Shown here: piece by piece, positions 3,493 to 44,809 of the stretch
Position numbering within the stretch: position 1 is the first letter of the stretch
Layout of the letters: each line of letters begins with the position of its first letter
DNA from: Dehalococcoidia bacterium
GTDB lineage: Bacteria; Chloroflexota; Dehalococcoidia; Dehalococcoidales; SURF-40
Direction: 5' to 3'
Assembly (NCBI GenBank): GCA_003599745.1
Contig: QZJL01000058.1
Span: forward strand, 1 to 54,464
DNA length: 54,464 bases
Notes under the pieces: generated by a model
Database searches by the model: none
What the model was told of the DNA's origin: nothing
The model's input: only the letters and a program-made list of their open reading frames with translations
Program-made: the position numbers and the translations under genes

Positions 3493-4224
3493 TTAGAAGT
3501 CGGCGAATGTCTTACCCTTTAAATAGTCGGGAAAAGTGTAGATGCCAGTTACCTGTAACCAACACTTATTATCTTCTGCCCACGGCCGTGCCAGTCCCAA
3601 GCGTAGATATAATCTAACAGATTCCTGAAAAGTCTTCTTCAATTCTTCGGCAACTTTTTTCGGTTCTTTATGTTGTCTTATAACTTGCGAATAGCATCGA
3701 TTCCATAGCGTCAGATCACTTACAGGTCGGCAATATGTGCGCCTATTTTTGTCAACAAATGTGACCCTAGGCTTAGCATTCTTCCCGGTTAATTCAATAT
3801 CAACGATTCTAGCGCCTGACAAAGTAGCGATAGATCTGGTCTCAGTACCAGGTAATACCCAATCGTTGCCACTTAGATGTCCTTCAAAAATATCTTCTAC
3901 AGCATCAAACGAGGTTTGCTGCAACGCCCTCTCCCACTCGGCATTGGTACAAAATCCCTTGCCTGTAATTGAGTCAGGGTTGAAACCCATATCTTCGATA
4001 TGCGGAGGATTAACCTTAATGACATGTAGGTCAAATTCTACCTTAGCCGAAGGTCGTACAATTGCTAAATGGTTCCTTTTCAAATAATTTTTCTGAAAAC
4101 CACCATTACATATTAGCCTGACAGAATTCCCATCTTCATCAAGTCCAACAACGCAAACTTCATTTCCATTGCTGAATTCCCGAGGCATCTGGGTCAGGTC
4201 AGTTATCACAATTGTTTTGCGCAT
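3493..4224 (-). CDS. uncharacterised 243-aa protein, third gene of the DUF488 cassette (possibly a dual-OB-fold family, unverified)
   Basis: ATG begins 11 nt after the stop of the upstream DUF488 gene. AT-rich codon usage like its two neighbours. Two beta-rich halves and no catalytic motif recognised. Confidence 0.6.
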   Translation of the reverse strand: MRKTIVITDLTQMPREFSNGNEVCVVGLDEDGNSVRLICNGGFQKNYLKRNHLAIVRPSAKVEFDLHVIKVNPPHIEDMGFNPDSITGKGFCTNAEWERALQQTSFDAVEDIFEGHLSGNDWVLPGTETRSIATLSGARIVDIELTGKNAKPRVTFVDKNRRTYCRPVSDLTLWNRCYSQVIRQHKEPKKVAEELKKTFQESVRLYLRLGLARPWAEDNKCWLQVTGIYTFPDYLKGKTFADF

Positions 4225-4235
4225 TCTTGTTCTCT

Positions 4236-4676
4236 TTATAAATGCACAATTTCAGTTTTTGTTGGTATAATCCGAGCCAAATATTCCGCAGCTAGACGTC
4301 GATGACAACGGGTGGGTTTGGCTTCGGAACAAAGTAATACCACGCCCTCTTCCAACAATACCGACGAAATATGATTCTCGACTTTGCGTTGCCGTATCAA
4401 CTCTAGGTATCTCCGTTCATATTCTGCCCAATCACTTGTTTTTCGGTATTCCTTTAATATTGATTCTTCTGGTGCAAATATTGGGGACTCATGATATTCA
4501 ATGTTAACCAGATGCCTTAGAAAATAAGGCAGGTCGTTCCTTTTTGTAAATCCTGCCAGCTGAGAGTTATTACTAAGGCGAATATCCAGCAAGTGTTTCG
4601 CCCCGCTACTACGCAAAGCTTCAAAAAACTTCTCAGCAGTCTTTTTGGTGAAACCGATGGTATAAATATTCAACAA
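4236..4676 (-). CDS. DUF488 family protein (paralog B)
   Basis: Starts (TTG)LNIYTIGFTKK. Contains LDIR and C-terminal LLCSEAKPTRCHRRL, the DUF488 hallmarks. Begins 4 nt after the stop of paralog A. Confidence 0.8.
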   Translation of the reverse strand: MLNIYTIGFTKKTAEKFFEALRSSGAKHLLDIRLSNNSQLAGFTKRNDLPYFLRHLVNIEYHESPIFAPEESILKEYRKTSDWAEYERRYLELIRQRKVENHISSVLLEEGVVLLCSEAKPTRCHRRLAAEYLARIIPTKTEIVHL

Positions 4677-4680
4677 AATC

Positions 4681-5193
4681 TCACATCGGGAGTGGATATT
4701 GACTAGCTGCTACCCCTACTTTTTCTTTCCACAGGTCTTCATCCGTTTGGATGCGTCCATCGCCCCGAATATGAAATATTTTCACCCCAGCTTGACGCAA
4801 ACTGTCGGCGACTAACATGTTGCGATGGCAAGAAATTGGGTTCTCCTCTGCGCACATAATGCAAACTCTATATCTTTTAACCTCATCCAAAATTCGTCTG
4901 ATTCCGTACCTGTAGTTTTCTTTTCCTTGAATCAATTTATAATCTACTTTACCTGTTTGATTGTCGTAACTATCTAATTCTGACGGCCTCCCGCCTAACA
5001 TGTCGCCCAGGTAAATGTAGTGGATTCTAGCTAGCTTCAACACCTTTTCTAAGTTATCTTTATCTGCAAACGTCGCCCAGCGACTTGTAGGATTACTTCG
5101 CACGTCTACAAGTACTTGGATTTTCGTGCCAATCAGTAATGCTACGAATTGCTCTTGAGTATGGTTGCTATGTCCTATCGTATATATTTGCAT
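4681..5193 (-). CDS. DUF488 family protein (paralog A)
   Basis: Starts MQIYTIGHSNHT. Contains VDVR and IMCAEENPISCHRNML, the DUF488 hallmarks. Confidence 0.85.
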   Translation of the reverse strand: MQIYTIGHSNHTQEQFVALLIGTKIQVLVDVRSNPTSRWATFADKDNLEKVLKLARIHYIYLGDMLGGRPSELDSYDNQTGKVDYKLIQGKENYRYGIRRILDEVKRYRVCIMCAEENPISCHRNMLVADSLRQAGVKIFHIRGDGRIQTDEDLWKEKVGVAASQYPLPM

Positions 5194-5887: not shown

Positions 5888-6396
5888 GATTCGTCCTCCT
5901 CCGCAGACGCGATTATCCCACCCAGGCGCACCATGCGCAGGTGGCAGATAGCACATGCAAGGGCGTCGGCGGCGTCGCTGGGCTGGGGAACCGTATCGAG
6001 ACCCAGCTGCAGCTTCACCATCTCCTGGATTTGCTCTTTAGAACTGGCGCCGTAGTCGGTCACCGTCTGCTTTATCTGTGCGGGAGTGTATTCAAAGCTC
6101 GGCAGATTCGCGCCGGCGGCGGCCAGGATAGCAACCGCCTGCGCCCGGCCGATGGCCAGGGCGGCGCGCACGTTTTTGGCGAGGAAGGGACGCTCGATAG
6201 CGACTGCCTCGGGGCGATTGGTAGAAATGATTTTCAAAAGCTCGCGGTAGTAGAAATAAAGACGCTCGCCGATGGGCGAACTGGCGGGGCGTCTCAGGGC
6301 GCCGTAACAAATCATAGTGATGTCGTCGCTGGCGTCCGACAGCACGATACCATAACCCATGCTCACCGTGCCGGGGTCAATGCCCAGGATTTTCAT
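5884..6396 (-). CDS. ruvC: crossover junction endodeoxyribonuclease RuvC
   Basis: I trimmed the track ORF to the ATG at 6396 (MKILGIDPGTVSMGYGIV, the canonical RuvC start containing the catalytic Asp). The C-terminal DAADALACAICH motif is present. Confidence 0.9.
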   Translation of the reverse strand: MKILGIDPGTVSMGYGIVLSDASDDITMICYGALRRPASSPIGERLYFYYRELLKIISTNRPEAVAIERPFLAKNVRAALAIGRAQAVAILAAAGANLPSFEYTPAQIKQTVTDYGASSKEQIQEMVKLQLGLDTVPQPSDAADALACAICHLRMVRLGGIIASAEEDES

Positions 6397-6610
6397 AGCT
6401 ATACTGTACCCGAAAAACATCAGAGATACAATGCGGGCGTATTTGGGGGGACGTATCATTTTGGGGCTGAAATCCGGGCAAGGTAGGGATGCGACCTTCC
6501 TCCCCCAGATTGCCACGTCACTTCGTTCCTACAATGACATTGGAGACAGGCCTTGGAATATCAATTTGATGCGCTGCCGCATTTCGGGATTTATTGAGCA
6601 GCTGCTGATA

Positions 6611-7381
6611 TTACCGGGAAGCGCTTTGCGCCTCGGCCTCGTGCTTGGCTAAAATCTCGGGAGAGAAGTCGGCGTTGGAATAGACGCCGTTGACATCATC
6701 CAGCTCTTCAAGGCGGTCGAGCAGCTTCAGCGCCTGGAGCCCCGGTTTTTCTTCCAGCTTGATGAGGGTCTTGGCGACCATCGAAAGCTCGGAAGAGTCC
6801 ACGTGCACCCCGGCGGCTTCCAGGGCTTTGCGCACCGCTTCTGTCTCCTCGGGCTTGGTATAAATCTCGATGTCGCCGTTGGACTGCTGGACGTCCTCGG
6901 CGCCGGCGTCAATCGCTTTAAGCTCAAGCTCCTCGACATCCCGGTCGCCGCCCTTGACGGTTATCATGCCGCGCGACTGGAAAAGCCAGGCGACGCAGCC
7001 GCTTTCTCCCAGGCTGCCACCGTGCCGGGTAAAGGCGTTGCGCACTTCCTGGAGGGCGCGGAGGCGGTTATCGGTCATCACCTGCACCAGGATAGCGGTG
7101 CCGCCCGGCCCGTAGCCCTCGAGAATGAACTCCTGGAGAGCGGCCCCTCCGCCCTCGCCGGAGCCTTTCCTGATGGCACGGTCAATGTTATCGAGGGGCA
7201 TGTTGGCGTCCCGGGCTTTCTGCACCGCCAGGCGCAGGCGGAAGTTAGCTTCGGGGCTGGGGCCGCCGGCGCGCACCGCCACGATGATTTCCCGCGCCAG
7301 TCTGGTGAAGAGCTGGCCACGCTTGGCGTCCGCGGCACCTTTCTGGTGCTTGATGGAAGACCATTTCGAATGACCCGACAT
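6611..7381 (-). CDS. YebC/PmpR family DNA-binding transcriptional regulator
   Basis: Starts MSGHSKWSSIKHQKGAADAKRGQLFTRLAREI, which is diagnostic of this family. Confidence 0.95.
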   Translation of the reverse strand: MSGHSKWSSIKHQKGAADAKRGQLFTRLAREIIVAVRAGGPSPEANFRLRLAVQKARDANMPLDNIDRAIRKGSGEGGGAALQEFILEGYGPGGTAILVQVMTDNRLRALQEVRNAFTRHGGSLGESGCVAWLFQSRGMITVKGGDRDVEELELKAIDAGAEDVQQSNGDIEIYTKPEETEAVRKALEAAGVHVDSSELSMVAKTLIKLEEKPGLQALKLLDRLEELDDVNGVYSNADFSPEILAKHEAEAQSASR

Positions 7382-7416
7382 GCCATGTCCCTCCGGGCGG
7401 TTTCACTGATATTCTA

Positions 7417-8028
7417 TCACAAACATTTCAGGTGCGAAACGTCATTGAGCAGGCGCAGAACACCGCCCGGCGAATAGGTCTCGATGATGCTGAGCGAGGC
7501 CAGTTCCAGACGGAACCGCCAGCGGTGCTCCAGCCCGATGCCCAGAAGACGGCAAATCAGGGTGCGCAGCGGGCCGTTGTGGGCGACCACCAGCAGCGTT
7601 TCACCGGCGGTATGCTTTTCGAGGCGTTTCGTGAACCGGCTCACCCGGCGGTTAAACGTAGCGACTGCATCCCCACCCGGGAACACCAGTTTTAGCGTGC
7701 GCTTCTTCCAGAGGCCGGCGACGTCGGGGAAGCGCTGCTCGATTTCGCTGAAAGTAAGCCCCTCAAGCTGGCCGAAGTCAATCTCGCGGAGCTCCGGGCA
7801 GATGGTCACACCAAGGCCGTGTCTTGAGGCGATGAGTTCAGCGGTGGTGCGGGCGCGGGCGAGAGGACTGGCGTAGATGGCATCAATTTTTTCCGAAGCC
7901 AGCCGTTCGCGCAGCCGTGCCGCCTGCTCAAGGCCGAGAGCGCTCAGGGCGACATCGGTCGCACCCCAGTAACGCTCGCTACTCTTTAATTCCGTCTCAC
8001 CGTGTCGTACCAGAAACAAACGTGCCAT
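7417..8028 (-). CDS. cobC: histidine phosphatase family protein, probable alpha-ribazole phosphatase
   Basis: Starts LFLVRHGETE (RHG motif) and has a second His motif VVAHNGPLR. Lies immediately upstream of cobS. Confidence 0.7.
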   Translation of the reverse strand: MARLFLVRHGETELKSSERYWGATDVALSALGLEQAARLRERLASEKIDAIYASPLARARTTAELIASRHGLGVTICPELREIDFGQLEGLTFSEIEQRFPDVAGLWKKRTLKLVFPGGDAVATFNRRVSRFTKRLEKHTAGETLLVVAHNGPLRTLICRLLGIGLEHRWRFRLELASLSIIETYSPGGVLRLLNDVSHLKCL

Positions 8029-8043
8029 CTATACCTCTAAATT

Positions 8044-8823
8044 TTAGGCCAGCCCGATGTGTACCAGCAGCGAGAGCATGACCAATGCCGTCGCCTCGGC
8101 AAGCTCGCCGACCGCGCCGTAAGCAGCAATGTTGAGACCGCCGAAACGGCTTTTCAAATAGAGGCCGAGCAGTCCTGCCACCGCAAAGACACCCGCCATT
8201 ATCACCAGCCCCGGCAGCCTCGCCAGGGAAAAGGTGACGCCGAGGGCGATAAGCGTGGCCGCCAGCATACCGTACCACCTTGCGCCGCGCTTGAAATCGC
8301 CGTCCGGCCCCGACGGGCGGGCGCCGCGGAAGCTGAAAATGGCATAGACCATCGCCCAGCGTCCCAGCACCGGGAAATAAATCAGGGCGTACAGCCACAG
8401 GCTCTGGCTCTGGGGCAGGCTGTCGAGCGCGACGTACTTGAGCAGTAACAGCGCTGCCACCGCGATGATGCCGAAGCTGCCGACACGCTTATCGTCGGTT
8501 ATCCGGAGACGGGTCTCCGGGCCGGCGTGACTGACCAGACCATCGGCGGTATGCGCCAGGCCGCCAAGCTGGCGGGCACCGGAAAATGCCGCCAGGCCGC
8601 CGATTATCAGCACATTGACCAGCGCCGATGGGAAAAGAAGCTTGAGCAGCCAGCCCGAAGCCGCCAGAAAGAGGCCGATGACCAGTCCAACCAGCGGGAA
8701 AAACAGGGCCGAAGCCCCGATTTCGCCCGGGCTGAGCGGGCGGCGTAGGGGCAAGGGGATGGTGGTCAGGTATCTTAAGGCTGCCAGGAATTTCAAACGG
8801 GGCTCCTCGGGTGCCGGTGGCAA
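8044..8823 (-). CDS. cobS: adenosylcobinamide-GDP ribazoletransferase
   Basis: Polytopic membrane protein with the N-terminal LRYLTTIPLP motif typical of CobS. Adjacent to the cobC-like gene. Confidence 0.85.
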   Translation of the reverse strand: MPPAPEEPRLKFLAALRYLTTIPLPLRRPLSPGEIGASALFFPLVGLVIGLFLAASGWLLKLLFPSALVNVLIIGGLAAFSGARQLGGLAHTADGLVSHAGPETRLRITDDKRVGSFGIIAVAALLLLKYVALDSLPQSQSLWLYALIYFPVLGRWAMVYAIFSFRGARPSGPDGDFKRGARWYGMLAATLIALGVTFSLARLPGLVIMAGVFAVAGLLGLYLKSRFGGLNIAAYGAVGELAEATALVMLSLLVHIGLA

Positions 8824-9034
8824 CGTTGCCGGTTAATATTGTAAACTAGACTATAGTAATACATTAACCGCTGGAGCTTCAATATCGCTTTACATATTAT
8901 TTGGCACTTCACAGCCAAATAACAACAAATACCGCCTATTCCACCACCGAACACAGTCCATTTATTCTGTAACACCTTGTCGGCGCTCCAGCACCGAGCA
9001 GGAAGACACATTCCCCCTGCACTCCTTTGCACCT

Positions 9035-9295
9035 TTACTCAGACTCTTCAACCGCATCTTCAAATCCGCTACATTGATTTACACCTATTGCCAGGTCAAA
9101 CTGGAACTCCTTATCCGTAACATACTTTTCCCTAATCCTTTTTTCCAACTTTACTAAAAGAACAGTTATTTCATCATTTATCTTCCCTAACTCTTCGTCA
9201 AACAGCCCGTGGACTACTTCGCTCACGTCCGAATTCCCCATATACGGGCACTCATCTTTACTATAAAAGTATTTACAACCAGCACAAGTACTCAA
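9035..9295 (-). CDS. hypothetical Cys-containing small protein (element, downstream of rep)
   Basis: 86-aa ORF 19 nt downstream of rep on the same strand. N-terminal CAGC..x9..C motif followed by an acidic coiled tail. Confidence 0.5.
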   Translation of the reverse strand: MSTCAGCKYFYSKDECPYMGNSDVSEVVHGLFDEELGKINDEITVLLVKLEKRIREKYVTDKEFQFDLAIGVNQCSGFEDAVEESE

Positions 9296-9314
9296 TTTCT
9301 ACACCATCCTAATA

Positions 9315-10364
9315 TCAATTTACGCAACGGAGCATACCTTCGCTTAGCTCTTCCACTACACCGCCACCAAGCAACGATGCTTTGAACCTCACCTTGCCAT
9401 CCGGCGCGGTGTAGGTACAGGCCTTCAGCGCGTCAAACAACACCACTCCCTTAAACGCCCATTCGCCAGCAGGAGACTCCTTGACGAATTCAGGTAATCG
9501 ATAACATTGCGAGTAACTATAAACCCGCTTTTTATAATACCATAGGTAAGACTGGCTTTCTTCAGTCCAACCTTCCAGCTTCGATACATACTTGCAACAA
9601 TACGAAGCTACATTTACCCGATTCTTATTCTCCAAACCACTACGCCCGTACTTCCATAATACAGACATTTCATCCTCTGCACGAACAAGAAATTGCAAAC
9701 CGGGGAAAAAGACGTGTAAATGAGGATATCCAAACGCCTCATTCCTTACCCTGTGCGACCCCTTTTTATGAGCATCACACTTTCTACCGTTAGCATCCTC
9801 AAAATGATACTCCGGTATCTCTTCAACCGCTTTCAAATATTTATAGCTATTCTTTTCTACTCTGAACCTCCGGGTATTTAACGTGTGCATTAACTTCCGT
9901 AAATGCACATTACAATCTCGCCACGCTTCCTCTTTAGTATAGCGTTTTGGGTCATAGGTCAGCGTCATCAACACTCCATCAGAAAACCACCTCGAACCTA
10001 AACGCTTCCGTATATTTCGTTGCATCAGCTTACGGCCACCAGCAAAATATCTTGATTTTTCCGCCGCCCTCACCACCATATAATCAGGAAAAGGCTTTTT
10101 ACTATCATACTTAGCTAACACGACCCCTTTGCTTTTCAACCTTTCTTTATGAGCTGCGAACTCAGCGCGGTCTTCTTTTGAAATCAGCGGTTTAACCCGT
10201 GACACATTAACTCTATTATGGACAAGGAAAGTAGGATTGTTTAAAAACTCTCCATTTTTATTACGCCAGCCCTGGGCGTACGAGCTTATCCCTTGCAAAC
10301 TAACCTGGGTCTGGTTAATTGATATATCTTCGGTTGACTCGGTTAAAAACGCCGTCTTTTTCAT
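9315..10364 (-). CDS. rep: rolling-circle replication initiator (HUH endonuclease, two-Tyr superfamily I)
   Basis: Three ordered motifs: VLMTLTYD (motif 1), GYPHLHVFF (HUH) and YCCKYVSK (Y-x-x-K-Y, as in phiX174 gpA-type Reps). AGAGGTG RBS. Confidence 0.75.
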   Translation of the reverse strand: MKKTAFLTESTEDISINQTQVSLQGISSYAQGWRNKNGEFLNNPTFLVHNRVNVSRVKPLISKEDRAEFAAHKERLKSKGVVLAKYDSKKPFPDYMVVRAAEKSRYFAGGRKLMQRNIRKRLGSRWFSDGVLMTLTYDPKRYTKEEAWRDCNVHLRKLMHTLNTRRFRVEKNSYKYLKAVEEIPEYHFEDANGRKCDAHKKGSHRVRNEAFGYPHLHVFFPGLQFLVRAEDEMSVLWKYGRSGLENKNRVNVASYCCKYVSKLEGWTEESQSYLWYYKKRVYSYSQCYRLPEFVKESPAGEWAFKGVVLFDALKACTYTAPDGKVRFKASLLGGGVVEELSEGMLRCVN

Positions 10365-13102: not shown

Positions 13103-13741
13103 ATGCCAATCAAAATGAAGCACAAAACCAAAACTTACTTCGTATATATCTATACCACGGCAAAATCAATGCGCCTTGACCTATCCTCACATTATTACGA
13201 AAATATTGGGAAAGGCTACCGGCTTTTTACCAGTATCAACGCATCATCATTTGACTCGGCCATAGACCGACTCTCCCACCTCTTCAACACAACATTCTCT
13301 TTCGAAAATCCAGTCACCAACTCCACATACTTCTTGCTTCATTTAAAAACCCAAAAGCCTAACCATAACCTAATCAGACCAACAAATCTTAAAATATTGC
13401 ATTGGAGCAAAATAACTAAAAAAATGCTCCAATCATCAACCGTCCTCTCAAGAATTGAAGCACGCTCTTATGAACAAGCCATTAATTGGTTTATATCTGA
13501 ATTCGATACCACACGCGAAATAAAACAATACCTTCTACACCTCGACATCTACAAACAACTAGCCATTGAAAACCACCAAAACAAAATACTTGAACTTTCA
13601 GGTCTTAAATACGTATGCAATCCTAAAATAATCACTAGAAATAACAGAAACGTTTTAATATCAATTGGAGGACATTTCATTAAAATCGGCAACGAAGAAC
13701 AAATTTACAGACCAGTGGAAGACCCCTTTAGTATCTATTAA
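13103..13741 (+). CDS. hypothetical 212-aa element protein with two copies of the same module
   Basis: Contains INASSFDSAIDRLSHLF and IEARSYEQAINWFISEF. No family recognised. Confidence 0.5.
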   Translation: MPIKMKHKTKTYFVYIYTTAKSMRLDLSSHYYENIGKGYRLFTSINASSFDSAIDRLSHLFNTTFSFENPVTNSTYFLLHLKTQKPNHNLIRPTNLKILHWSKITKKMLQSSTVLSRIEARSYEQAINWFISEFDTTREIKQYLLHLDIYKQLAIENHQNKILELSGLKYVCNPKIITRNNRNVLISIGGHFIKIGNEEQIYRPVEDPFSIY

Positions 13742-24991: not shown

Positions 24992-26026
24992 TCAGGCTAT
25001 CAAACCGAAGACGTAGCCAGTGGTAGTCGCCATGACCACTACCAGGGCAACGTAGGTGAGCATCTTCTTCGTCCCCATAACGTTGCGGATAACCAGCATG
25101 CTGGGTAACGAGAGGGCTGGCCCTGCTAAAAGCAACGCCAACGCCGGCCCCTTGCCCATACCGAGGTCCATGAAAGCTCTAATGATGGGCACTTCGGTTA
25201 GGGTGGCAAAGTACATCAGGGCACCGGCGAACGAGGCGATAAAACTCGCCGGCAGGCTGTTACCGCCAACATATCGCGTTACGATTGATTGAGGAATGAC
25301 CACCGTCAGAATACCGGCGATAAAGACACCCACCAGCAGCCAGGGGATAATCAGGCGGGTAAAATGCAGCGTCTCTTTCAACCACCGCACAATCTCACCT
25401 TTTGTAAACCAGCGCCACAGGATTACAGCTGCCGCCGCCAGGAAGATGACCATTACAATCCAGTTCTTAGAGGCGGCGAAGACGAGCACGCCCACCAGAG
25501 ACCCGATAAAAAGAACCTGTTGCCAGATGCTCTTACCAGCCGGGTCGCTGGCCAGCATGGCAAACGCCTGCGCGTCAGCCTGGGACTTTTCTTTGCGGTA
25601 TATGAAGGCCATAATCAGGCCGATGATTACCGAAAAGGCAATCGCACCAATCGCTCTGGCGAAGCCAATATCAAAACCAAGCAATTTAGCCGAATAGACA
25701 ATCGCCAGGACGTTAATGGCCGGGCCTGAGAAAAGGAAGGCGATAGCCGGGCCCAGGCCAGCCCCCTTTTTATAGATACCCGCAAACAGGGGTAACACCG
25801 TGCAGGAGCAAACTGCCAGTACCGCACCCGAAACGGAGGCCACGCCATATGAAACCGGCTTCTTGGTCTGCGGGCCGAAATACCTGAGAACGGCAGCCTG
25901 CGAAACGAATGCCGCAATCGCTCCGGCGATGAACAGCGCCGGCACCAGGCAGGTTATAACATGAGCGGACAGGTATTCTGTCAAACCGTTGATTCCGCCC
26001 CGAAAAAGACTGGCAATTGTCTCCAT
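24992..26026 (-). CDS. DUF318 family permease (ArsP-like)
   Basis: 344-aa polytopic protein with the AVCSCTVLPLF vicinal-Cys motif. Confidence 0.85.
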   Translation of the reverse strand: METIASLFRGGINGLTEYLSAHVITCLVPALFIAGAIAAFVSQAAVLRYFGPQTKKPVSYGVASVSGAVLAVCSCTVLPLFAGIYKKGAGLGPAIAFLFSGPAINVLAIVYSAKLLGFDIGFARAIGAIAFSVIIGLIMAFIYRKEKSQADAQAFAMLASDPAGKSIWQQVLFIGSLVGVLVFAASKNWIVMVIFLAAAAVILWRWFTKGEIVRWLKETLHFTRLIIPWLLVGVFIAGILTVVIPQSIVTRYVGGNSLPASFIASFAGALMYFATLTEVPIIRAFMDLGMGKGPALALLLAGPALSLPSMLVIRNVMGTKKMLTYVALVVVMATTTGYVFGLIA

Positions 26027-27168: not shown

Positions 27169-27591
27169 ATGTACCCCCGCCTTTTCTATGACTTTCTCAC
27201 AAGTAACGACAGTTTGTGGGTCTACCGGGAAAAGGAGCTTATTTTCAGCTCGACCGAAGACCGGCTGGTGCCCCTGATGACCTATCTCGACCGCTTTGAT
27301 AATGAGGCAAACCCGGTCGTCTTCGATAAAATCGTGGGCAACGCCGCCGCCCTGCTCGCCGTCAAAGCCGGTTGCCGCGAGCTTTTCAGTCCCTTCGGCA
27401 GCCAGCACGCGGTGGCTACCCTCGAAAAATACGGCATCAGGCATCACCTGGGCGAGGTCGTGCCCGCCATCATGCAGCCCGGCGGCAAAGAAATGTGCCC
27501 GATGGAAAAGCTCTCGCTGGGCAAAGAGCCGGAGGCGTTTTACCTGCTGATGAAGGAGAGACTCTCGGCAAATAGGAGGCGGCTAAAATGA
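27169..27591 (+). CDS. DUF1893-like protein
   Basis: ATG 1 nt after the upstream stop. Contains ..VFDKIVGNAAALLAV.., which resembles the TM1506/DUF1893 family. Confidence 0.6.
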   Translation: MYPRLFYDFLTSNDSLWVYREKELIFSSTEDRLVPLMTYLDRFDNEANPVVFDKIVGNAAALLAVKAGCRELFSPFGSQHAVATLEKYGIRHHLGEVVPAIMQPGGKEMCPMEKLSLGKEPEAFYLLMKERLSANRRRLK

Positions 27592-28505
27592 AGAAAGCCT
27601 CAGTCACTCTCCTTATTTTGTTATTAGCTGGCATTCTGCTAGCGATAAGTTGCGGAAGAGCTACAAGTCAAATTGTCTTTTATTCCGGTGGTTATATGGA
27701 CGATGGGAAAATGTATTTAATAAACGCCGATGGCACTAACCAAACGCTTAACCTTAGTTACGATGGCTATTGGACCTACTGGGGCCCGACATTATCACCT
27801 GACGACACCAAGATTGCTTTTGGTTCAATGTCTAGTGGCGAACTTGATTCTCCGGTAGATATCTATGTTATGAACGCCGACGGTAGTAACCTTATAAAAC
27901 TTACAGATGGAGGAAATAATTTCTCACCGGCTTGGTCACCAGATGGGGCAAAGATTGCCTTCGTGTCTGGGCGTGATGACAACTTTGAAATATACATCAT
28001 GAATGCAGACGGGAGCAACCAGATAAGAATAACCGATATCGATGGTAGCAATAACTTAGAACCGGCCTGGTCACCAGATGGTGCACAGATTGCCTTTGTG
28101 TCCGAACGTGATGCCAATCCTGAGATATACATTATGAATGTCGATGGTAGTAATCGAATGAGACTAACGGATAACGACTGGTACGATTTTCATCCTGTAT
28201 GGTCACCCAACGGTAAGAAAATAGCCTTCGTATCCCAACGTGGCGGTCCAAACAAGGGTGGCAATAGGGGGATATACGTTGTGAATACTGACGGCAGCAA
28301 CGAAATAAGATTAACCGATACCGATGGCGGTGATATGGAACCAGCTTGGTCGCCTGATGGAAGCAAGATTGCCTTCACGCGCGGCGATAATGGCTATGCT
28401 CAAATATATGTAATGAATGCCAACGGTAGCAACCAGAAGAGGCTCACAAACAATAAGTTTGATGCAAGAAATCCTCAGTGGGTGTCTAAATCAATCGGGC
28501 GATGA
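27588..28505 (+). CDS. TolB-like PD40 beta-propeller repeat protein, probable lipoprotein
   Basis: Signal peptide with LLAISC lipobox. At least five repeats of SPAWSPDGxKIAFVSxRDxNxEIYIMNADGSNxxRLTD. AT-richer than the flanking genes. Confidence 0.85.
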   Translation: MKKASVTLLILLLAGILLAISCGRATSQIVFYSGGYMDDGKMYLINADGTNQTLNLSYDGYWTYWGPTLSPDDTKIAFGSMSSGELDSPVDIYVMNADGSNLIKLTDGGNNFSPAWSPDGAKIAFVSGRDDNFEIYIMNADGSNQIRITDIDGSNNLEPAWSPDGAQIAFVSERDANPEIYIMNVDGSNRMRLTDNDWYDFHPVWSPNGKKIAFVSQRGGPNKGGNRGIYVVNTDGSNEIRLTDTDGGDMEPAWSPDGSKIAFTRGDNGYAQIYVMNANGSNQKRLTNNKFDARNPQWVSKSIGR

Positions 28506-28508
28506 ATG

Positions 28509-30350
<1,842 letters not shown>

Positions 30351-30362
30351 AAGTTTACGAAC

Positions 30363-31751
30363 CTATTTCGAAATATCTTTGGCAAGCGCGTATAATGCCG
30401 CGAGCATGGCCTCGTCGTCTTCGGGCAGGACGGAGCGCGGGTCGAGCAGGAGGACGTCCTCGCTGATGCGCCCGATAACCGGGATGACCGGGGACTGGCG
30501 CAGCCGACGAGAAAGCGCCTGGGCGCTCTGCCCCCGCTTGTTGCCTGGGCCGACTGCCACCAGCCGGGTCTTGAGGGTCTCGCCGGGCAGACTGCCGCCG
30601 CCGATGGTGCTTTCGCCATCCTGTAACCTGGCAAGGCCGCCGAGCGCCTCCACCCAGCGCCTGGCGCGGCGACTAAGTTCTTCGGGAGAAGCCGAAATCA
30701 TGCGCCAGACGGGAATTTCTTGCGGTGCTTCTTCCCTGAGATAGTGAACCAGCGTGGCCGCCAGACCCGCGAGGCGCACTTTATCAATGCGCACCGCCCG
30801 TGCCAGCGGGTGCTTTTTCAGCCTGTCAACCGCAGCTTTCTTGCCCGCGATGATGCCCGCCTGCGGGCCACCGATGAGCTTGTCGCCGGAGAAAAAGGCG
30901 AGGTCGGCACCCAGCTTGATACTTGCCTGTACCGTCGGCTCGGGGGCAAGGCCGTAAGTCGCAGTATCCAGCAGGCAGCCGCTGCCCAGGTCGTCAAATA
31001 CCAGAATATTATGATTGCGGGCGATAGTTACTAACTCGGCCAGCGTCACCTCGCTGGTGAAGCCGGTCACCCGAAAGTTCGAGGTGTGGACGCGCAGCAG
31101 CGCCGCCGTGCGCTCGGTGATGGCCTGCTCGAAGTCGGCAATATAGGTGCGGTTGGTGGTGCCGACCTCGACCAGCTTCGCCCCGCTCTGGCGCATCACG
31201 TCGGGGATGCGGAAGCCGCCGCCAATCTCCACCGCCTGCCCCCTCGAAACGATGACCTCCTTGCGCGAGGCAAGGGCGCTAAGCCCCAGCAGTACCGCCG
31301 CCGCATTGTTATTCACTACCAGCGCCGCCTCGGCGCCGGTGAGACGGCAGACGAGCGGCTCGATAAAGACCTGGCGCTCACCGCGGCTGCCAGTACTCAG
31401 GTCGAACTCAAGGTTGGAAAAGCCGCGCGACACCGCCGCCATGGCGCTGATGGCGGCACGGCTTAAAGGCGCCCGCCCCAGATTGGTGTGCAGGATGACA
31501 CCGGTAGCGTTGATGACCGGTCTCAGGCCGGGCTGGACTAACGCCTCAACATGGACGGCTACCGCCCCGGCAATTTCATCGAGGGAAGGGACAGGCTTAC
31601 CTACGGCAATGCTGCGCCGGGCATCTTCGAGACGCTCTCTTGTGAGATTTAGCAGCAAATCGTGGGAGAAAGAGTTGCCAAGCTCTTTCAGACGTTCGCC
31701 GGCAAGCACGCGGTCAACGCTGGGCAGATTTCGCAATTCACCGCTGGGCAT
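30363..31751 (-). CDS. selA: L-seryl-tRNA(Sec) selenium transferase
   Basis: 462 aa. N-terminal LRNLPSVDRVL, then INATGVILHTNLGRAPL, and the PLP Lys context FSGDKLIGGPQAGI. Confidence 0.95.
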   Translation of the reverse strand: MPSGELRNLPSVDRVLAGERLKELGNSFSHDLLLNLTRERLEDARRSIAVGKPVPSLDEIAGAVAVHVEALVQPGLRPVINATGVILHTNLGRAPLSRAAISAMAAVSRGFSNLEFDLSTGSRGERQVFIEPLVCRLTGAEAALVVNNNAAAVLLGLSALASRKEVIVSRGQAVEIGGGFRIPDVMRQSGAKLVEVGTTNRTYIADFEQAITERTAALLRVHTSNFRVTGFTSEVTLAELVTIARNHNILVFDDLGSGCLLDTATYGLAPEPTVQASIKLGADLAFFSGDKLIGGPQAGIIAGKKAAVDRLKKHPLARAVRIDKVRLAGLAATLVHYLREEAPQEIPVWRMISASPEELSRRARRWVEALGGLARLQDGESTIGGGSLPGETLKTRLVAVGPGNKRGQSAQALSRRLRQSPVIPVIGRISEDVLLLDPRSVLPEDDEAMLAALYALAKDISK

Positions 31752-31816
31752 AAGGCTATTGTATCATGACACTGGCAAAGCTGTTTAGAGATTCGCAAAA
31801 TAGATACTGCTTAGTA

Positions 31817-31850
31817 TTGACAATTATACTATAGCATACTATAGTATAAT
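31817..31850 (+). promoter_or_regulatory. promoter-like region with 10-4-10 palindrome
   Basis: TTGACA at 31817. Palindrome TATACTATAG-CATA-CTATAGTATA at 31825..31848 overlaps TATAAT at 31845..31850. The -35/-10 spacing is non-ideal. Confidence 0.4.
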
Positions 31851-31883
31851 TCAGTGAATATTCATTAGCTAAGGAGTACAAGC

Positions 31884-32258
31884 ATGGACAATAATGAAAG
31901 GGCTGCGTTATTGATTAGGGTTGCCCAACAAATTAGAGATAGCGTGGATAAGCAAGCTATACTATCGTGGGCAGAAGAACTTATCTCTAAAACTTATGCG
32001 CCTGCGCAAAATACAAAACAACAAGAAATCACTTACCCTATTGATGTTTTTGCACGGTACAAAAACATCTTGTATCACGGAAAGTTGTTAAATGATGGGA
32101 AAATAGAACGGAACGGTGACTCGTTCAGCCCTTCAAAGGCAGCTATAAATATCACCCATAATTCCGTAAACGGCTGGAGATTCTGGCGTTACATGAACAA
32201 AAATGGTCAAGAACGAGCAATAGATACTTTGCGTACCTTTCGCTTAAATAGGAAATAA
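31884..32258 (+). CDS. orphan protein with C-terminal RAMA/DUF4357-like motif
   Basis: The AT-rich 124-aa ORF has an AAGGAG RBS. The C-terminal GDSFSPSKAAINITHNSVNGWRFWRY matches the F.SPS.AA......NGW..W signature of domains associated with restriction-modification enzymes. Confidence 0.55.
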   Translation: MDNNERAALLIRVAQQIRDSVDKQAILSWAEELISKTYAPAQNTKQQEITYPIDVFARYKNILYHGKLLNDGKIERNGDSFSPSKAAINITHNSVNGWRFWRYMNKNGQERAIDTLRTFRLNRK

Positions 32259-32286
32259 TCCAAGCTGGCTAATTCCAGCGCAATAG

Positions 32287-32583
32287 TTACTTCTTTATCT
32301 CCACCCGCAGGGTGTTAATCTGGCTCACCCCTTTGAGGCTGCTTGCCAGGCCGAAAAGCGTGTTGGTGATGACCCGGCTCACAAAAGGGTTGGTGGGCAC
32401 CGCCGCCCCGTTCACCTTCAGGTTGACGCCGGCGGGGGCGACCGAGAGGTCAACCGTATCGGGTGTGCCGGTTCCCTCAAGGGCTTCGAGAATGCCCCTC
32501 ACCACGTGGTCAACCAGGCTCTGGGCAAAATAATCGAGCGGGATAGCGGCGTCGTTAACCGTCAGGGCAACTTTCGTGGTCAT
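32287..32583 (-). CDS. hypothetical 98-aa protein downstream of tusA
   Basis: I trimmed the track ORF to the ATG at 32583, which is preceded by GAGGGAGG. Confidence 0.55.
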   Translation of the reverse strand: MTTKVALTVNDAAIPLDYFAQSLVDHVVRGILEALEGTGTPDTVDLSVAPAGVNLKVNGAAVPTNPFVSRVITNTLFGLASSLKGVSQINTLRVEIKK

Positions 32584-32623
32584 CTTGTCCTCCCTCGTTG
32601 CACGTTTTAATGTAATAATCAAG

Positions 32624-32680
32624 CCGTTCGTGGTGAGCCTGTCGAACCACGACGCCCTTCGACAAGCTCAGGGCGAACGG
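32624..32680. repeat. REP-like nested palindromic element
   Basis: Nested arms: CCGTTCG/CGAACGG, CGTGGT/ACCACG and GTCGAA/TTCGAC. The sequence family (..GTGAGCCTGTCGAACCAC..CTTCGACAAGCTCAGGGCGAACGG) is one I recall as a widespread intergenic repeat. Confidence 0.4.
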
Positions 32681-32715
32681 AATTGCAATGCTAATTGCCA
32701 CAGGTAAGTACCTGC

Positions 32716-32943
32716 TTACTTCTTCTTGACGTAGACCTTGTATTCGCCGCCGGACTCTTCAATCCCCAGACACTCGTTGCCGGTGGACTTGCACCATGCC
32801 GGCATATCCAGCTTGATGCCCTTGTCGTCGGCCACCACCTCAAGCACCTCGCCCGGCTTCATCTCCTTGATTTTCGCGGCGGTTTTGACGATGGGCATCG
32901 GGCAGTAGAGACCCACGCAATCAAGAGTTTTATCGGCATTCAT
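32716..32943 (-). CDS. tusA: TusA/SirA-family sulfurtransferase
   Basis: Contains LDCVGLYCPMPIVKTAAKIKEMKPGEVLEV, with the conserved CPxP motif. Confidence 0.88.
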   Translation of the reverse strand: MNADKTLDCVGLYCPMPIVKTAAKIKEMKPGEVLEVVADDKGIKLDMPAWCKSTGNECLGIEESGGEYKVYVKKK

Positions 32944-33042
32944 ATTATGGTAACCTCATCCCGACAATCCCTCTCAACTCTTAGAGGCTCCTTTTATAAT
33001 TTGATTAAGAGGCTCCGCGCCTCCTATGCTTGGTTCCTCAAG

Positions 33043-33540
33043 CTAAACGAACAGCACTACTTTTGAATCGCGCGCCTCGCTCAGGAAATAGGCTGCCCCC
33101 GCCAGGCTGGCAACCTCCGCCCGGAACGCCTTTTCCGGTACCCCCATCACCCCGCAGGAGGTGTTGCAGGCGATGAGCTTGACCCCCATCTGCTCGGCCA
33201 TCTTGATGAACTCCTCGACCGACGGCATATTGACGTCTTTCATCAGGCGTTTCATCATCCAGGTGCCCAGTCCCATCATGTTGAATTTGGACAGGGTCAG
33301 CCTTTTCGCACCGCCGCGGTTCATCCAGTTGAGCATCTTGCGCATCAGTCCCTTGCTGCCTATGCCGCCCTCGTTCTTCTTGATGACATTCAGTCCCCAG
33401 AAAGTGAAGAACATGGTGACGTCCATGCCCATTGAAGCGCCGGTGGTCGCCAGCATGAAAGCCGCCAGCGCTCGGTCGAGGTCGCCGCTGAAGACCACGA
33501 TGGTGAGCTTTTCCTTTTTTTCAGCTTCGGCTTCGGCCAT
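33043..33540 (-). CDS. DsrE/DsrF-like family protein
   Basis: Contains LTIVVFSGDLDRALAAFMLA and ..LIACNTSCGVMG. Adjacent to tusA. Confidence 0.8.
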   Translation of the reverse strand: MAEAEAEKKEKLTIVVFSGDLDRALAAFMLATTGASMGMDVTMFFTFWGLNVIKKNEGGIGSKGLMRKMLNWMNRGGAKRLTLSKFNMMGLGTWMMKRLMKDVNMPSVEEFIKMAEQMGVKLIACNTSCGVMGVPEKAFRAEVASLAGAAYFLSEARDSKVVLFV

Positions 33541-33550
33541 TCGTCACCTC

Positions 33551-34147
33551 CTAGCCCGCCGGTTTCAACTCCGCCCCGCAGTGGGGACACTGGGTGGCGT
33601 CGCGGGCGACCACCTCGCCGCACTTGGGGCAGAAAACCAGCTTCACGCCGCAGGCCTGGCAGAAGGGCAGGTCGGCCGCGCTAACTTCACCTTCGCAGAA
33701 TGGGCAGACGTGCAGCTCTCCCTCGTGCGAGGCAACAGCAGGCTTGGCGGCGACCGGGATGGCGACGCCCCTGGCCTGTTGCTTTGCCTGGTAGTCCTCG
33801 ATGGCCTTGTGCAGCGCCTGGGCGCCCAGGTTGGAGCAGTGGAACTTGTTCTTGGGCAGCCCTTCCAGCTCATCAGCCACCGACTTCGGGGTGATTTTCA
33901 GGGCTTCCTCGATGGTCTTGCCCATCGCCATTTCGCTCACCATCGAGGAAACGGCGATGGCCGCCCCGCAGCCGAAGGTTTTGAACTTGACATCTTCCAG
34001 ACGGTTATCCTTGACCTTGATGTAGAAGGTCATCATATCGCCGCAGACAGGGTTGCCTTCCTCGCCGACGCCGTCGGCGTCGGGAATCTCGCCCACGTTG
34101 CGCGGGTTGGTAAAGTGGTCCATCACTTTCTGGCTGTAGACCGGCAT
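33551..34147 (-). CDS. nifU: Fe-S cluster scaffold (IscU/NifU N-terminal domain) with C-terminal double zinc ribbon
   Basis: Contains NPVCGDMM..FKTFGCGAAIA..HCSNL (the three scaffold Cys residues), then a tail with CPFC..CQAC..CPKC..CPHC. Confidence 0.9.
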   Translation of the reverse strand: MPVYSQKVMDHFTNPRNVGEIPDADGVGEEGNPVCGDMMTFYIKVKDNRLEDVKFKTFGCGAAIAVSSMVSEMAMGKTIEEALKITPKSVADELEGLPKNKFHCSNLGAQALHKAIEDYQAKQQARGVAIPVAAKPAVASHEGELHVCPFCEGEVSAADLPFCQACGVKLVFCPKCGEVVARDATQCPHCGAELKPAG

Positions 34148-34151
34148 AACA

Positions 34152-35336
34152 CTAGCCTCCCTGTTTTACGAATTTGGCATAAAGCGGTGACATCTGCCGC
34201 AGGCGCTCGACGATGGGCGGCATCACCTCAAGGACGTAATCAACATCGGCATCGGTATTTTGAATTCCCAGGGTAAAGAGCACCGAACCCTGGGCAAGCT
34301 CGTGGGACAGCCCCATCGCCAAAAGCACGTGCGAGGCCTTGAGCGCCCGCGAGGTGCAGGATGAGCCGCTGGAGACGGCCACGCCCTGCATGTTGAGCAT
34401 CATCAGCATGGACTCGCCCTCGACAAACTGGACGCAGAAAGAGCAGTTGCCCGGCACCCGTTTTTCAGGGTGGCCGGTGACGACCACGTGCCCGACTTTT
34501 TCCGGCAGCTCCTTGAGCAGGCGGTCGCGCAGCTTGCTCACACGGGCAACCCTTTGCGATATGTCAGGCTGCGCCAGCTCCGCCGCCTTGCCCAGGCCGA
34601 CGATGGCCGGAACGTTCTCGGTACCCGCCCTTCTCCCGCCTTCCTGCACCCCGCCATCGAGCAGGGGCATGATTCTTACCCCCTGGCGCACCCATAGCGC
34701 ACCGACCCCTTTAGGCCCGTAGAACTGGTTGCCCGCCAGGCTCAGGGCGTCAACGCCCAGCTCTTTGACATTAACCGGGATGACGCCTGACGCCGCTACA
34801 GCATCGGTATGAAAGGGGATTTTATTTTCCTTGGTGATTTTGGCAATCTCGCCAATCGGCTCCAGGCTGCCGACCTCGCCGTTAGCCATCATCACCGAGA
34901 CAAGCACGGTATCTTTGCGGATAGCCTTGCGCACCTCTTCGGGGTCAACGATGCCCTGCCCGTCCACCGGCACGAGCGAGAGCTCAAAACCCAGCTTTTC
35001 CAGCGTCCGGGCGGAGTTGAGTACGGAAAAATGCTCGACGGCGGAGACGATGACATGTTTGCCTTTTTGCTGGTTGGCAAGCGCCAGCCCCTTGACAGCG
35101 GTGTTATTGCTCTCGGTGCCGCTGGAGGTAAAGATGATTTCCTCGGGGTTCGCCGCCCCGATTAGCGCGGCCACTTTTTCCCGCGCTCCGTCAACCGCTT
35201 CGCGGGCGGCGTCACCCCAGTCATGCAGGCAGGACGGGTTGCCAAAGGCATCGCCCAGATAAGGCAGCATCGCCTCGCGGACTTCGGGTAAAAGCGGTGT
35301 GGTCGCCCCGTTATCGAGATAAACCTGTCGTCCCAT
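34152..35336 (-). CDS. nifS: cysteine desulfurase (NifS/IscS type)
   Basis: I trimmed the 472-aa track ORF to the ATG at 35336 (MGRQVYLDNGATTP). Contains ..FHTDAV.. and the active-site loop SSGSSCTS. Confidence 0.93.
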   Translation of the reverse strand: MGRQVYLDNGATTPLLPEVREAMLPYLGDAFGNPSCLHDWGDAAREAVDGAREKVAALIGAANPEEIIFTSSGTESNNTAVKGLALANQQKGKHVIVSAVEHFSVLNSARTLEKLGFELSLVPVDGQGIVDPEEVRKAIRKDTVLVSVMMANGEVGSLEPIGEIAKITKENKIPFHTDAVAASGVIPVNVKELGVDALSLAGNQFYGPKGVGALWVRQGVRIMPLLDGGVQEGGRRAGTENVPAIVGLGKAAELAQPDISQRVARVSKLRDRLLKELPEKVGHVVVTGHPEKRVPGNCSFCVQFVEGESMLMMLNMQGVAVSSGSSCTSRALKASHVLLAMGLSHELAQGSVLFTLGIQNTDADVDYVLEVMPPIVERLRQMSPLYAKFVKQGG

Positions 35337-35373
35337 AGCTAATCCATCCTTGCGGCTCGTGTTTGGCTCAAAT

Positions 35374-35583
35374 TCAAGGGTAAAGCTGGTTGCCCTCGTC
35401 ATCCTCGACGATGATAGCCTGCTCGGGGCAACTGTCGGCGGCGTCGAGCAGCGTTTTCTCGTCCACCGAGGCCGGGTCAAGCACCACCGCCTTGTTTTCG
35501 GCGTCAAGGGCAAAGACGGTAGGGGCAAAAGCCACGCAGTTGCCAAGTCCCCGGCAGAGCTCGCGGTCAACCTTCACCCTCAT
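35374..35583 (-). CDS. small single-cluster ferredoxin
   Basis: Starts MRVKVDRELCRGLGNCV and has ...DSCPEQAI near the C-terminus. GGAGGT RBS. Confidence 0.8.
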   Translation of the reverse strand: MRVKVDRELCRGLGNCVAFAPTVFALDAENKAVVLDPASVDEKTLLDAADSCPEQAIIVEDDEGNQLYP

Positions 35584-35749
35584 ACGTTACCTCCGAGGCT
35601 GTTTCTAGCCTTATTCTATCATAAAACGCCCGCAACAATATGATATTTGTCGCAAAACGGCGAAAATACGGCGTACTGCCACAGGGCTGAGAACCCCGCC
35701 CAAAATGCCAGATGATGAGTACGGTCGGAGCAGAGGATAGAGTCGCAGC

Positions 35750-35989
35750 TTATTTGGCGAGCAGCTCTTCGAGCTTGGGCTGGTTGAAACCTACCACCAC
35801 CGCATCGTCAACGGTGATGACCGGTACGCCCATCTGGCCCGACTTCGTAATCATCTCCTTGGCTTTTTCCCGGTCAGCGGCCACGTCATACTCGGTGAAA
35901 ACGATGCCTTTGCGCGAAAGAAACTCTTTCGCCCGGTAGCAATGCGGTCAGGTATTTGTGGAGTAAATTACCACCTTTTTTTCAGCCAT
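35750..35989 (-). CDS. glutaredoxin-like selenoprotein (in-frame TGA = Sec at codon 14; not in ORF track)
   Basis: GGAGG RBS then ATG at 35989. Translation is MAEKKVVIYSTNT-U-PHCYRAKEFLSRKGIVFTEYDVAADREKAKEMITKSGQMGVPVITVDDAVVVGFNQPKLEELLAK with TAA at 35750. The TGA (35950..35948) sits exactly where Grx/NrdH proteins have the first Cys of CPxC. A hairpin lies 15 nt downstream, and selA/selB are 4 kb away. Confidence 0.8.
35914..35932 (-). promoter_or_regulatory. candidate bacterial SECIS hairpin
   Basis: On the mRNA: UGA, then 15 nt, then GCGAAAGA-GUU-UCUUUCGC (perfect 8-bp stem, G/U in the apical loop). An outer extension UUGC/GCAA is possible across a 6-nt bulge. Confidence 0.6.
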
Positions 35990-36066
35990 TTTCCGCCTCC
36001 TAAACTTAATCCGAAAAGCCTTATAAACCGGCTGAAACAGCCCGGTATCAGCCCTTGAATAAATTA

Positions 36067-43891: not shown

Positions 43892-44809
43892 TTAATCTGC
43901 TTCCCGTCCTTTCAAAATATCTTTCAATCTTTCCAGTTCTTCATTACTATCAGAGTAGATTTCACGCTCGCAGTAAATCGCTTTTAGAGAATTCATCGCC
44001 TCCACTTCTCCCTTATTGAATTCTCTTATCTCGTATTCTTTTGTGGTTGGGGCAAAGATGACTTCTTTTCTAAACATATAAATCATATATTCTGGTGCTA
44101 TGGGAAAGTAGACTTCATATGGAAGGCTAAATTTTCTTAGCTCATATCTTTTGACAAGACTTTTGTGAAGATAAGGAGGAAAGTCACTTGTCACAAATTT
44201 TTTATCAGGAGGAGCCTTTGCTACAACCCACCTGTAATCTAGGAACATATCACGAGACGGGTCATTGTGGGGGTTATGAGGAGTGCCAATAGCACCTGTT
44301 AAAACGTCCCTGACTGTAAACATTGTCATCACTGATTCCCGAAACTCCTTCTCAGAAAAGCCATTCTCTTTTATGAGGTTACCACTTGCATCCATTATCT
44401 TATCGAACGATTCTTCCCCAATCCTGTTGCGCATAAACGTTTGAGGCACAGCATGCCTCATCATCTGTGACCCAATAAACTCGGCTAAACCCCAACGTGT
44501 TTCCTCATCAATTTCGTCTTTCGCACCGCCCAAATAAGCTATCATTGTTCGTAAACAACCAGCAAAACGGTTGTCTAACTCGCTTAAAGCTCTCTCAAAA
44601 AAATCTTTCCCAAATATTGTGCCTTTTAGCATCCCTACGTTAAACAAGTTGTTTCTGCCACCCACGTTTCTAGTCTTTTGTTTTCTTATCTCAAGCCGTC
44701 GCTTGTCAAGCACAAATATCTCATCATTCTCACTATTGTCCTTTCTATCTATAGCCCAATAGTTCAAATAAAACTGGGGAACCATATGTTGGTATTTACT
44801 TTCACTCAT
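43892..44809 (-). CDS. DUF4238 domain protein (AT-rich orphan)
   Basis: N-terminal HMVPQFYLNYW matches the DUF4238 H.VPQFYL signature. AT content is clearly higher than in neighbouring genes. Confidence 0.7.
   Translation of the reverse strand: MSESKYQHMVPQFYLNYWAIDRKDNSENDEIFVLDKRRLEIRKQKTRNVGGRNNLFNVGMLKGTIFGKDFFERALSELDNRFAGCLRTMIAYLGGAKDEIDEETRWGLAEFIGSQMMRHAVPQTFMRNRIGEESFDKIMDASGNLIKENGFSEKEFRESVMTMFTVRDVLTGAIGTPHNPHNDPSRDMFLDYRWVVAKAPPDKKFVTSDFPPYLHKSLVKRYELRKFSLPYEVYFPIAPEYMIYMFRKEVIFAPTTKEYEIREFNKGEVEAMNSLKAIYCEREIYSDSNEELERLKDILKGREAD

Follow-up and report, generated by a model that had tools for sequence, protein, structure and literature searches.

The gene examined here, grxU, lies on the minus strand at positions 35750..35989 of a 54,464-nucleotide (nt) contig (QZJL01000058.1, assembly GCA_003599745.1) from a Dehalococcoidia bacterium of the GTDB lineage SURF-40. 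The whole contig is referred to as the window. grxU is a glutaredoxin-like (YruB-family) coding sequence of 79 residues, interrupted by one in-frame UGA at codon 14. This UGA is predicted to be read as selenocysteine (Sec, U), directed by a hairpin that resembles a bacterial selenocysteine insertion sequence (SECIS). Based mainly on comparison with related loci, a probability of roughly 0.93 was assigned to this selenoprotein reading.

Translation of the minus strand from 35989 to 35750 gave MAEKKVVIYSTNT*PHCYRAKEFLSRKGIVFTEYDVAADREKAKEMITKSGQMGVPVITVDDAVVVGFNQPKLEELLAK*, in which the single internal stop is TGA. The coding sequence starts with ATG at 35989..35987 and terminates with TAA at 35752..35750. 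A Shine-Dalgarno sequence, AGGAGG (35996..36001, minus strand), was read 6 nt 5' of the ATG. The TGA occupies 35948..35950 (minus strand) and, judged by translation and by its column among homologues, takes the first position of a U-P-H-C motif. An earlier reading of the window, made from its letters and a list of open reading frames (ORFs; hereafter the sequence-only reading), had proposed a 79-residue read-through protein with a good ribosome binding site and an ATG start, and the coordinates, the AGGAGG and the single TGA were all borne out. It had also reported that no forward ORF entry covered the gene and that only the antisense frame at 35712..35939 (plus strand) was present, which matches the mechanical ORF list for frames of at least 60 amino acids (aa). 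This 75-aa antisense frame only shadows grxU and is no gene in its own right; the strand opposite to it encodes a conserved protein family, and its exact product was absent from a collection of 15 billion proteins.

On the sense strand, the ORF list contained only a GTG-started C-terminal tail of 44 aa (35884..35750, minus strand). Public gene calls record the same fragment. JGI/IMG holds only the 44-aa tail (P0122, VAADREK..., named 'glutaredoxin'). The identical gene with the same TGA was also found on a second public assembly record, JGI contig Ga0104756_1006280, and there likewise only a 44-aa call is present, between phosphoribosyltransferase and ferredoxin genes. The gene had been described as unannotated and as one that standard pipelines would miss. 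This holds for the full gene, and the TGA of orthologues was called tryptophan elsewhere (see below), but the 44-aa fragment is called.

Profile and structure matches were computed with cysteine (Cys) substituted for U14. Pfam PF00462 (Glutaredoxin) was matched at 1.1e-18 with 67.5 bits (gathering score 22.9), residues 6-64 aligning to profile positions 1-59 of 60. The NCBIfam model TIGR02196 (glutaredoxin-like, YruB-family) scored 91.6 bits against a curated cut-off of 88.55 and was covered at profile positions 1-73 of 74. Scores under the respective cut-offs were obtained for the NrdH-redoxin model TIGR02194 (48.1 bits; cut-off 85.75), for the Grx3 model, and for the UXX-star models NF041212 (63.2 against 66 bits) and NF041114 (46.9 against 72). 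The C-terminus (...ELLAK) is without U, and no UXX-stop motif is present. Among structures, the PDB glutaredoxin 7c10 was matched at 7e-22 over residues 4-78, with the active site NTCPHC where grxU has NTUPHC; a literature search returned no paper mentioning PDB 7c10. PDB 4tr0 and 4tr1 were matched at about 1e-9 (4tr0, 9e-10). We take these two to be Grx1 of Clostridium oremlandii, 4tr0 presumably being its Sec-to-Cys form. The 120 best protein homologues were 68-79% identical, and those with names were from Dehalococcoidia; Cys-containing Dehalococcoidia proteins that carry the annotation 'glutaredoxin-like YruB-family protein' were 70-78% identical. By these matches, the predicted grxU product is a full-length glutaredoxin-fold protein of the YruB family, in agreement with the Grx/NrdH-like assignment made earlier.

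The residue at the UGA column was read by codon in a DNA-level set of 161 loci, this gene counted in. The aligned codon encoded Cys in 130 loci and was TGA in 31, and the frame was intact on both sides. When one genome per species was scanned, TGA stood at the exact codon in 10 metagenome-assembled genomes (MAGs) of Dehalococcoidales/Chloroflexota, and 70 other genomes had a Cys codon. An independent metagenome scan yielded a further 18 TGA forms and 60 Cys forms. At the protein level, the column was occupied by Cys in 101 of the best 120 proteins and by 'W' in the other 19. Two of the 'W' proteins were fetched as DNA (L081 and L082) and both had TGA, so gene callers had applied a code that reads TGA as tryptophan. 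With these two confirmed, all 19 'W' orthologues appear to be TGA translated as tryptophan. They include P0003, P0004, P0010, P0014, P0017, P0020 and P0021 and come from short contigs. Neither a gap nor an unrelated residue was found at the column among the best 120 proteins and the 161 DNA loci; an alignment of Cys homologues to the UGA, proposed earlier as a check, was thus obtained. TGA forms were 63-97% identical to one another and interleaved with Cys forms by similarity, which argues for an old, maintained TGA and against a recent lesion.

The tryptophan calls, 19 among the 120 best proteins with two confirmed as TGA at the DNA level, would also be expected if UGA were a sense codon in these organisms (Trp or Gly, genetic codes 4 or 25) or were read through by a near-cognate tRNA, the residue then being other than Sec. 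We consider this very unlikely. TGA terminates 9 of the 33 long ORFs in the window and is therefore an ordinary stop here. With Trp or Gly as the nucleophile of a CxxC motif, the fold would lose its activity, and Cys fills this position in every homologue without TGA. A reassigned codon would also leave the SECIS-type hairpin and the selA and selB genes described below unexplained. The closest relatives are Dehalococcoidia, and we know of no UGA reassignment described for this class.

The SECIS-like hairpin, GCGAAAGA-GUU-UCUUUCGC, was located at 35914..35932 (minus strand; 5' arm 35932..35925, loop 35924..35922, 3' arm 35921..35914), inside codons 20-26 (A K E F L S R). It begins exactly 15 nt past the UGA and forms a perfect stem of 8 Watson-Crick pairs with a 3-nt loop, precisely as the sequence-only reading had it. 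Its sequence is unique within the window, where 0.02 matches were expected. Folding of 23 nt gave -10.8 kcal/mol (z = -2.9; 0 of 200 shuffles folded as well), and folding of 61 nt gave -18.8 kcal/mol (z = -1.6). Single-sequence folding on its own is thus only mildly to moderately unusual. A lower-stem extension in the 61-nt fold of the window was dropped, as it was not conserved among orthologues. The bSECISearch consensus comprises a loop of 3-9 nt, a stem of 4-16 bp, a minimum free energy (MFE) of <= -7.5 kcal/mol, a G in the first two loop positions (usually G[G/U], pair-closed) and a UGA-to-loop distance of 16-37 nt (PMC13188914). The grxU hairpin lies within all of these published bounds, with a loop of 3 nt (GUU), a stem of 8 bp, an MFE of -10.8 kcal/mol, a GU loop start closed by A-U, and a UGA-to-loop distance of 23 nt (15-nt spacer plus 8-nt 5' arm). 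In the remaining 30 TGA forms, the loop was GUA in 27, GUU in 2 and AGUU in L147.

An in-register hairpin with 7-8 contiguous pairs was present in 30 of the 31 TGA forms (this gene counted) and in 2 of the 130 Cys forms (Fisher p = 4e-29, without correction for relatedness). Conservation of the hairpin in orthologues, the absence of which had been named earlier as a refutation, was thereby found with TGA and lost in 128 of the 130 Cys forms, all with fewer than 7 contiguous pairs. The 31st TGA form, L147, is the most divergent and carries a re-registered 7-bp stem, GCUAAGG-AGUU-UCUUGGU, which includes a G-U pair. At this locus (L147:1031-1091, plus strand) the position of the stem is held and its sequence is changed, and the 4-nt loop has G second. 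The sole Cys forms with at least 7 pairs are the metagenome loci L086 and L103, both with TGT and a complete 8-bp hairpin. Both have probably undergone a recent Sec-to-Cys conversion that left a fossil SECIS, and they resemble the 'remnant SECIS' cases known for such conversions (PMC1794560).

Codon usage was compared across 13 TGA forms, whose codons +6 to +11 were GCG / AAA / GAG / TAT or TTT / CTT / TCG, and the sole synonymous change in these six hairpin codons was AAG for AAA, seen twice, with a G-U pair kept. Nearly all other conserved residues used 2-5 synonymous codons. Leucine was encoded by CTT in 13/13 in the hairpin versus 4-5 codons at three other leucine positions, and serine by TCG in 13/13 versus 3 codons elsewhere. 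This synonymous-site argument is stronger than the association with TGA because relatedness matters less to it. Pairing itself was kept in 95.8% of cells, versus 33-64% when partners were slid. In L105, a C-G pair is replaced by U-A, a compensatory change, and several sequences have wobble changes that preserve pairing.

The stem is wholly coding, lies over a conserved helix past the active site and shows weak covariation, and could therefore be viewed as a by-product of the conserved residues R-A-K-E-Y/F-L-S, with no RNA function. This, too, is very unlikely. Where Cys forms encode identical or similar residues, their codons differ and the stem is gone; in L002, the same RAKEYLS is encoded by GCG AAG GAA TAT CTT TCC, and the stem is degraded to a 6-bp remnant. 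In TGA forms, synonymous sites are frozen in precisely the six hairpin codons, whereas the rest of the gene is variable. TGA forms are confined to [AT]KE[YF]LS with four single-residue exceptions (L105, L112, L138 and L147), while Cys forms vary at the hairpin residues (AKDFFK, AKDYLT and others). The constraint at the hairpin thus seems to run from RNA to protein, and not the reverse. No TGA form was found without a hairpin in the 16-37 nt range, even L147 having its re-registered stem. For the hairpin, we regard the comparative evidence as decisive, not the single-sequence fold.

A pseudogene, in which a Cys codon (TGT or TGC) had mutated to TGA next to an incidental hairpin, would be one substitution away, would fit the treatment of the locus as a fragment by public pipelines and could draw on L086 and L103, whose TGT with the same hairpin indicates that state changes occur, but we consider it effectively refuted by the comparative data, namely by the same TGA in 30 other loci (10 from distinct species-level genomes) with intact frames, starts and stops, by a divergence among TGA proteins that excludes one recent ancestor without later divergence, by amino-acid conservation on both halves of the gene, and by a hairpin selected at synonymous sites essentially only together with TGA.

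The contig also carries genes for Sec incorporation. selA (L-seryl-tRNA(Sec) selenium transferase; 30363..31751, minus strand) matched TIGR00474 over its full length with 562.5 bits (cut-off 267.9). selB (Sec-specific elongation factor; 28509..30350, minus strand), the presumed reader of the hairpin, matched TIGR00475 with 375.4 bits (cut-off 242.25) over profile positions 2-579 of 581, the C-terminal part included. Both genes are intact, score above the NCBIfam equivalog cut-offs and are situated about 4.0-7.2 kb from grxU; the earlier estimate of 4-6 kb was about right. grx and selA are also close together, though differently arranged, in L006, a Cys-form locus of another Dehalococcoidales MAG, whose selA (L006:4531-5892, plus strand) is 63% identical to that of the window and lies about 4 kb from grx. 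Three scans for further TGA-split genes, using heuristics of codon usage and GC content at third codon positions (GC3), gave none that was convincing besides grxU; these scans are weak on short pieces, and the first two missed grxU.

Several points weigh against the selenoprotein reading. Within the 54-kb window, neither selC (ARAGORN, 0 tRNAs; Rfam, none at E <= 1) nor selD (SelD motif search) was found. Rfam returned no SECIS, tRNA-Sec or other family, either for the window at gathering scores and at E <= 1 or for the gene surroundings at E <= 10, where only chance matches to small nucleolar RNAs appeared (E ~5). The TGA forms are related, and the Fisher test overstates their independence. 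Covariation is thin, with 2 double changes (L105 and L147) in one sequence each. The near-invariance of the hairpin leaves little room for it, and alone it is too weak, so that the case rests on synonymous-site conservation and on the association with TGA. A gene for a partner resembling thioredoxin reductase (TrxR) is absent from the window, and the reductant was accordingly deduced from relatives. Sec insertion itself, SelB binding, the reductant's identity and the substrates are all inferred.

If UGA-14 is read as Sec, the product would be a small thioredoxin-fold thiol/selenol-disulfide oxidoreductase with Sec as the attacking residue (U14-P-H-C17). With the ribosome at UGA-14, the hairpin 15 nt downstream would offer a G-U at the start of the apical loop, 23 nt past the UGA. 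SelB carrying GTP and Sec-tRNA(Sec) would bind the hairpin, and Sec would be inserted with no termination. The Sec-tRNA(Sec) would be made by SelA from the same contig. Cycling between the selenol/thiol and selenenylsulfide states may then reduce disulfides or sulfenic acids of partner proteins. The Sec-containing Grx1 of C. oremlandii regenerates a selenoprotein MsrA (PMC4479559).

The reductant is most likely a flavoprotein resembling TrxR and the C-terminal part of AhpF (TrxR/AhpF-C-like), and not glutathione, as for NrdH; this was judged from the gene neighbourhood of relatives. A 304-aa TrxR/AhpF-C-like gene is located less than 400 nt downstream of grx in 14 of 23 TGA loci and 15 of 121 Cys loci with enough sequence. 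The encoded flavoprotein has a CAIC redox motif and matches both thioredoxin reductase and the AhpF C-terminal part, in each case under the equivalog cut-off. It directly follows grx in L008 (6274-7185, plus strand), L002, L005, L007, L009, L011, L014, L020, L022 and L073, and further in L084, L085, L087, L090-L092, L095-L100, L105, L112, L115, L138 and L147. The recurrent pair suggests a dedicated two-component redox system in Dehalococcoidia, in which electrons would pass in an NrdH-like chain from NAD(P)H via the flavoprotein and the UxxC Grx to target disulfides or sulfenates.

In the window and in the syntenic relative L001, the gene order is phosphoribosyltransferase, grxU, ferredoxin, NifS, NifU, DsrE2-like, TusA and orf111, and the neighbours in L001 are 72-91% identical to those in the window. 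The genes downstream of grxU form a same-strand cluster towards selA-selB (32287..35583, minus strand) with a 4Fe-4S ferredoxin of 69 aa, identical to RJQ37666.1 (35583..35374), NifS (~35336..34152), NifU (34147..33551), DsrE2-like (33540..33043), TusA (32943..32716) and the conserved 111-aa orf111 (32622..32287), all on the minus strand. Between the grx stop and the ferredoxin gene, a consensus scan gave a weak, uncertain terminator-like stem followed by a T run (35629..35656, minus strand). It has 10 pairs, 3 of them G-C, and such sites are no commoner in the window than in shuffles. Between orf111 and selA, a 124-aa ORF with a RAMA domain (restriction enzyme adenine methylase associated) is encoded on the plus strand (31884..32258). 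It is contained in an AT-rich stretch (31756..32260) with a GC3 of 0.38 compared to ~0.75 in neighbouring genes, which looks like an insertion of foreign DNA splitting a longer same-strand gene run.

L001, which is the window's closest syntenic relative, harbours a truncated, 88-codon N-terminal TrxR-like remnant between grxU and ferredoxin (6272-6532, plus strand), and the junction of grxU with the ferredoxin-NifS genes therefore looks like a secondary rearrangement. The corresponding stretch is lost in the window (35749..35584). A conserved functional coupling of grxU to the NifS cluster was considered and downgraded on account of this remnant. That grxU, with its partner gene lost, was recruited into persulfide or perselenide trafficking instead of general disulfide reduction is improbable; if true, the protein might release or reduce sulfur or selenium bound to NifS or TusA, and possibly supply Sec synthesis with selenium.

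In many Dehalococcoidia relatives (L003, L006, L008 at 7239-9899 on the minus strand, L010, L011, L020, L022 and L073), grx or the grx-trxR pair is adjoined by an oppositely oriented gene for a CopA-type copper P-type ATPase. A YHS-domain gene is located beside grx in L082 (453-602). In the window, an SO_0444-family Cu/Zn efflux-like gene (24992..26026, minus strand) lies ~10 kb from grxU. A link between the redoxin and copper handling is possible from these neighbourhoods. Genes with low GC3 (0.37-0.45, versus ~0.7-0.8) were noted at 3493..5193, 9315..10364, 13103..13741, 27588..28505 and 43892..44809 and were probably acquired horizontally; the one at 27588..28505 encodes a PD40/WD40-like beta-propeller protein and abuts the end of selB.

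Sec-containing glutaredoxins are not new, as the sequence-only reading had acknowledged. Grx (PF00462, UxxC) is an experimentally verified prokaryotic selenoprotein (PMC13188914), and early surveys listed Sec-Grx in Geobacter, Moorella and Alkaliphilus (PMC1794560), with predictions in Geobacter sulfurreducens, Moorella thermoacetica and Alkaliphilus metalliredigens. With Grx1 of Clostridium (Alkaliphilus) oremlandii, grxU shares the Pfam family, a small single domain, an in-gene SECIS hairpin and a UxxC motif near the N-terminus, which is U14/C17 in grxU and U13/C16 in Grx1 (PMC4479559). In contrast to known Sec-Grx proteins, grxU belongs to the YruB subfamily (TIGR02196), has UPHC and VVGFNQ motifs and a Chloroflexota host, and its likely reductant, judged by neighbourhood, is TrxR/AhpF-C-like instead of glutathione. 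Compared to the Cys forms of the YruB family, length and motifs agree, whereas grxU is predicted to have Sec for the first Cys and its AKE[YF]LS codons are fixed for the hairpin.

NrdH-redoxins have a similar size and a Grx-like fold, and in relatives of grxU the grx gene is paired with that of a thioredoxin-reductase-type flavoprotein. The grxU product probably works as a TrxR-dependent, glutaredoxin-like redoxin. Ribonucleotide reductase genes were not seen beside grx in the window or in the neighbours inspected. UXX-star selenoproteins are likewise thioredoxin-fold proteins of anaerobes with weak profile similarity to grxU (NF041212, 63.2 bits), but carry Sec three residues from the C-terminus, while in grxU it would be in the N-terminal redox motif. 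Like the fdhF-type bacterial SECIS of E. coli, the grxU hairpin directly follows the UGA inside the ORF and has a stable stem and a small, pair-closed loop starting with GU. It differs in its very short 3-nt loop, the lack of a bulged U and its near-invariance throughout the clade.

Specific to grxU are the YruB-type subfamily in Dehalococcoidia, the near-invariant SECIS module, the fossil SECIS in Cys forms and the conserved TrxR-like partner gene. General knowledge of selenoproteins is unchanged, Sec-Grx being an established family, and the finding is mainly an annotation correction and a clean comparative SECIS example. Dehalococcoidia are reported to be among the organisms richest in selenoproteins, with MAGs holding 46-49 selenoprotein genes in BSepDB (PMC13326102). 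Here, a 79-residue redox enzyme is on record as a 44-aa fragment, and orthologues are on record with Trp at the catalytic position. Such gene calls skew counts of selenoproteins, redox motifs and pseudogenes in Dehalococcoidia. As an example of a bacterial SECIS, the clade is unusually clean. The signature TGA-N15-GCGAARGA-GUW-UCUUUCGC could serve to recover these genes. The near-invariant SECIS module seems to determine which residues the protein has there (mostly [AT]KE[YF]LS) and to permit repeated switches between TGA and TGT by a single nucleotide, which leave a fossil SECIS in Cys forms. Sec/Cys interconversion is illustrated by L086 and L103, Cys forms whose hairpin is intact.

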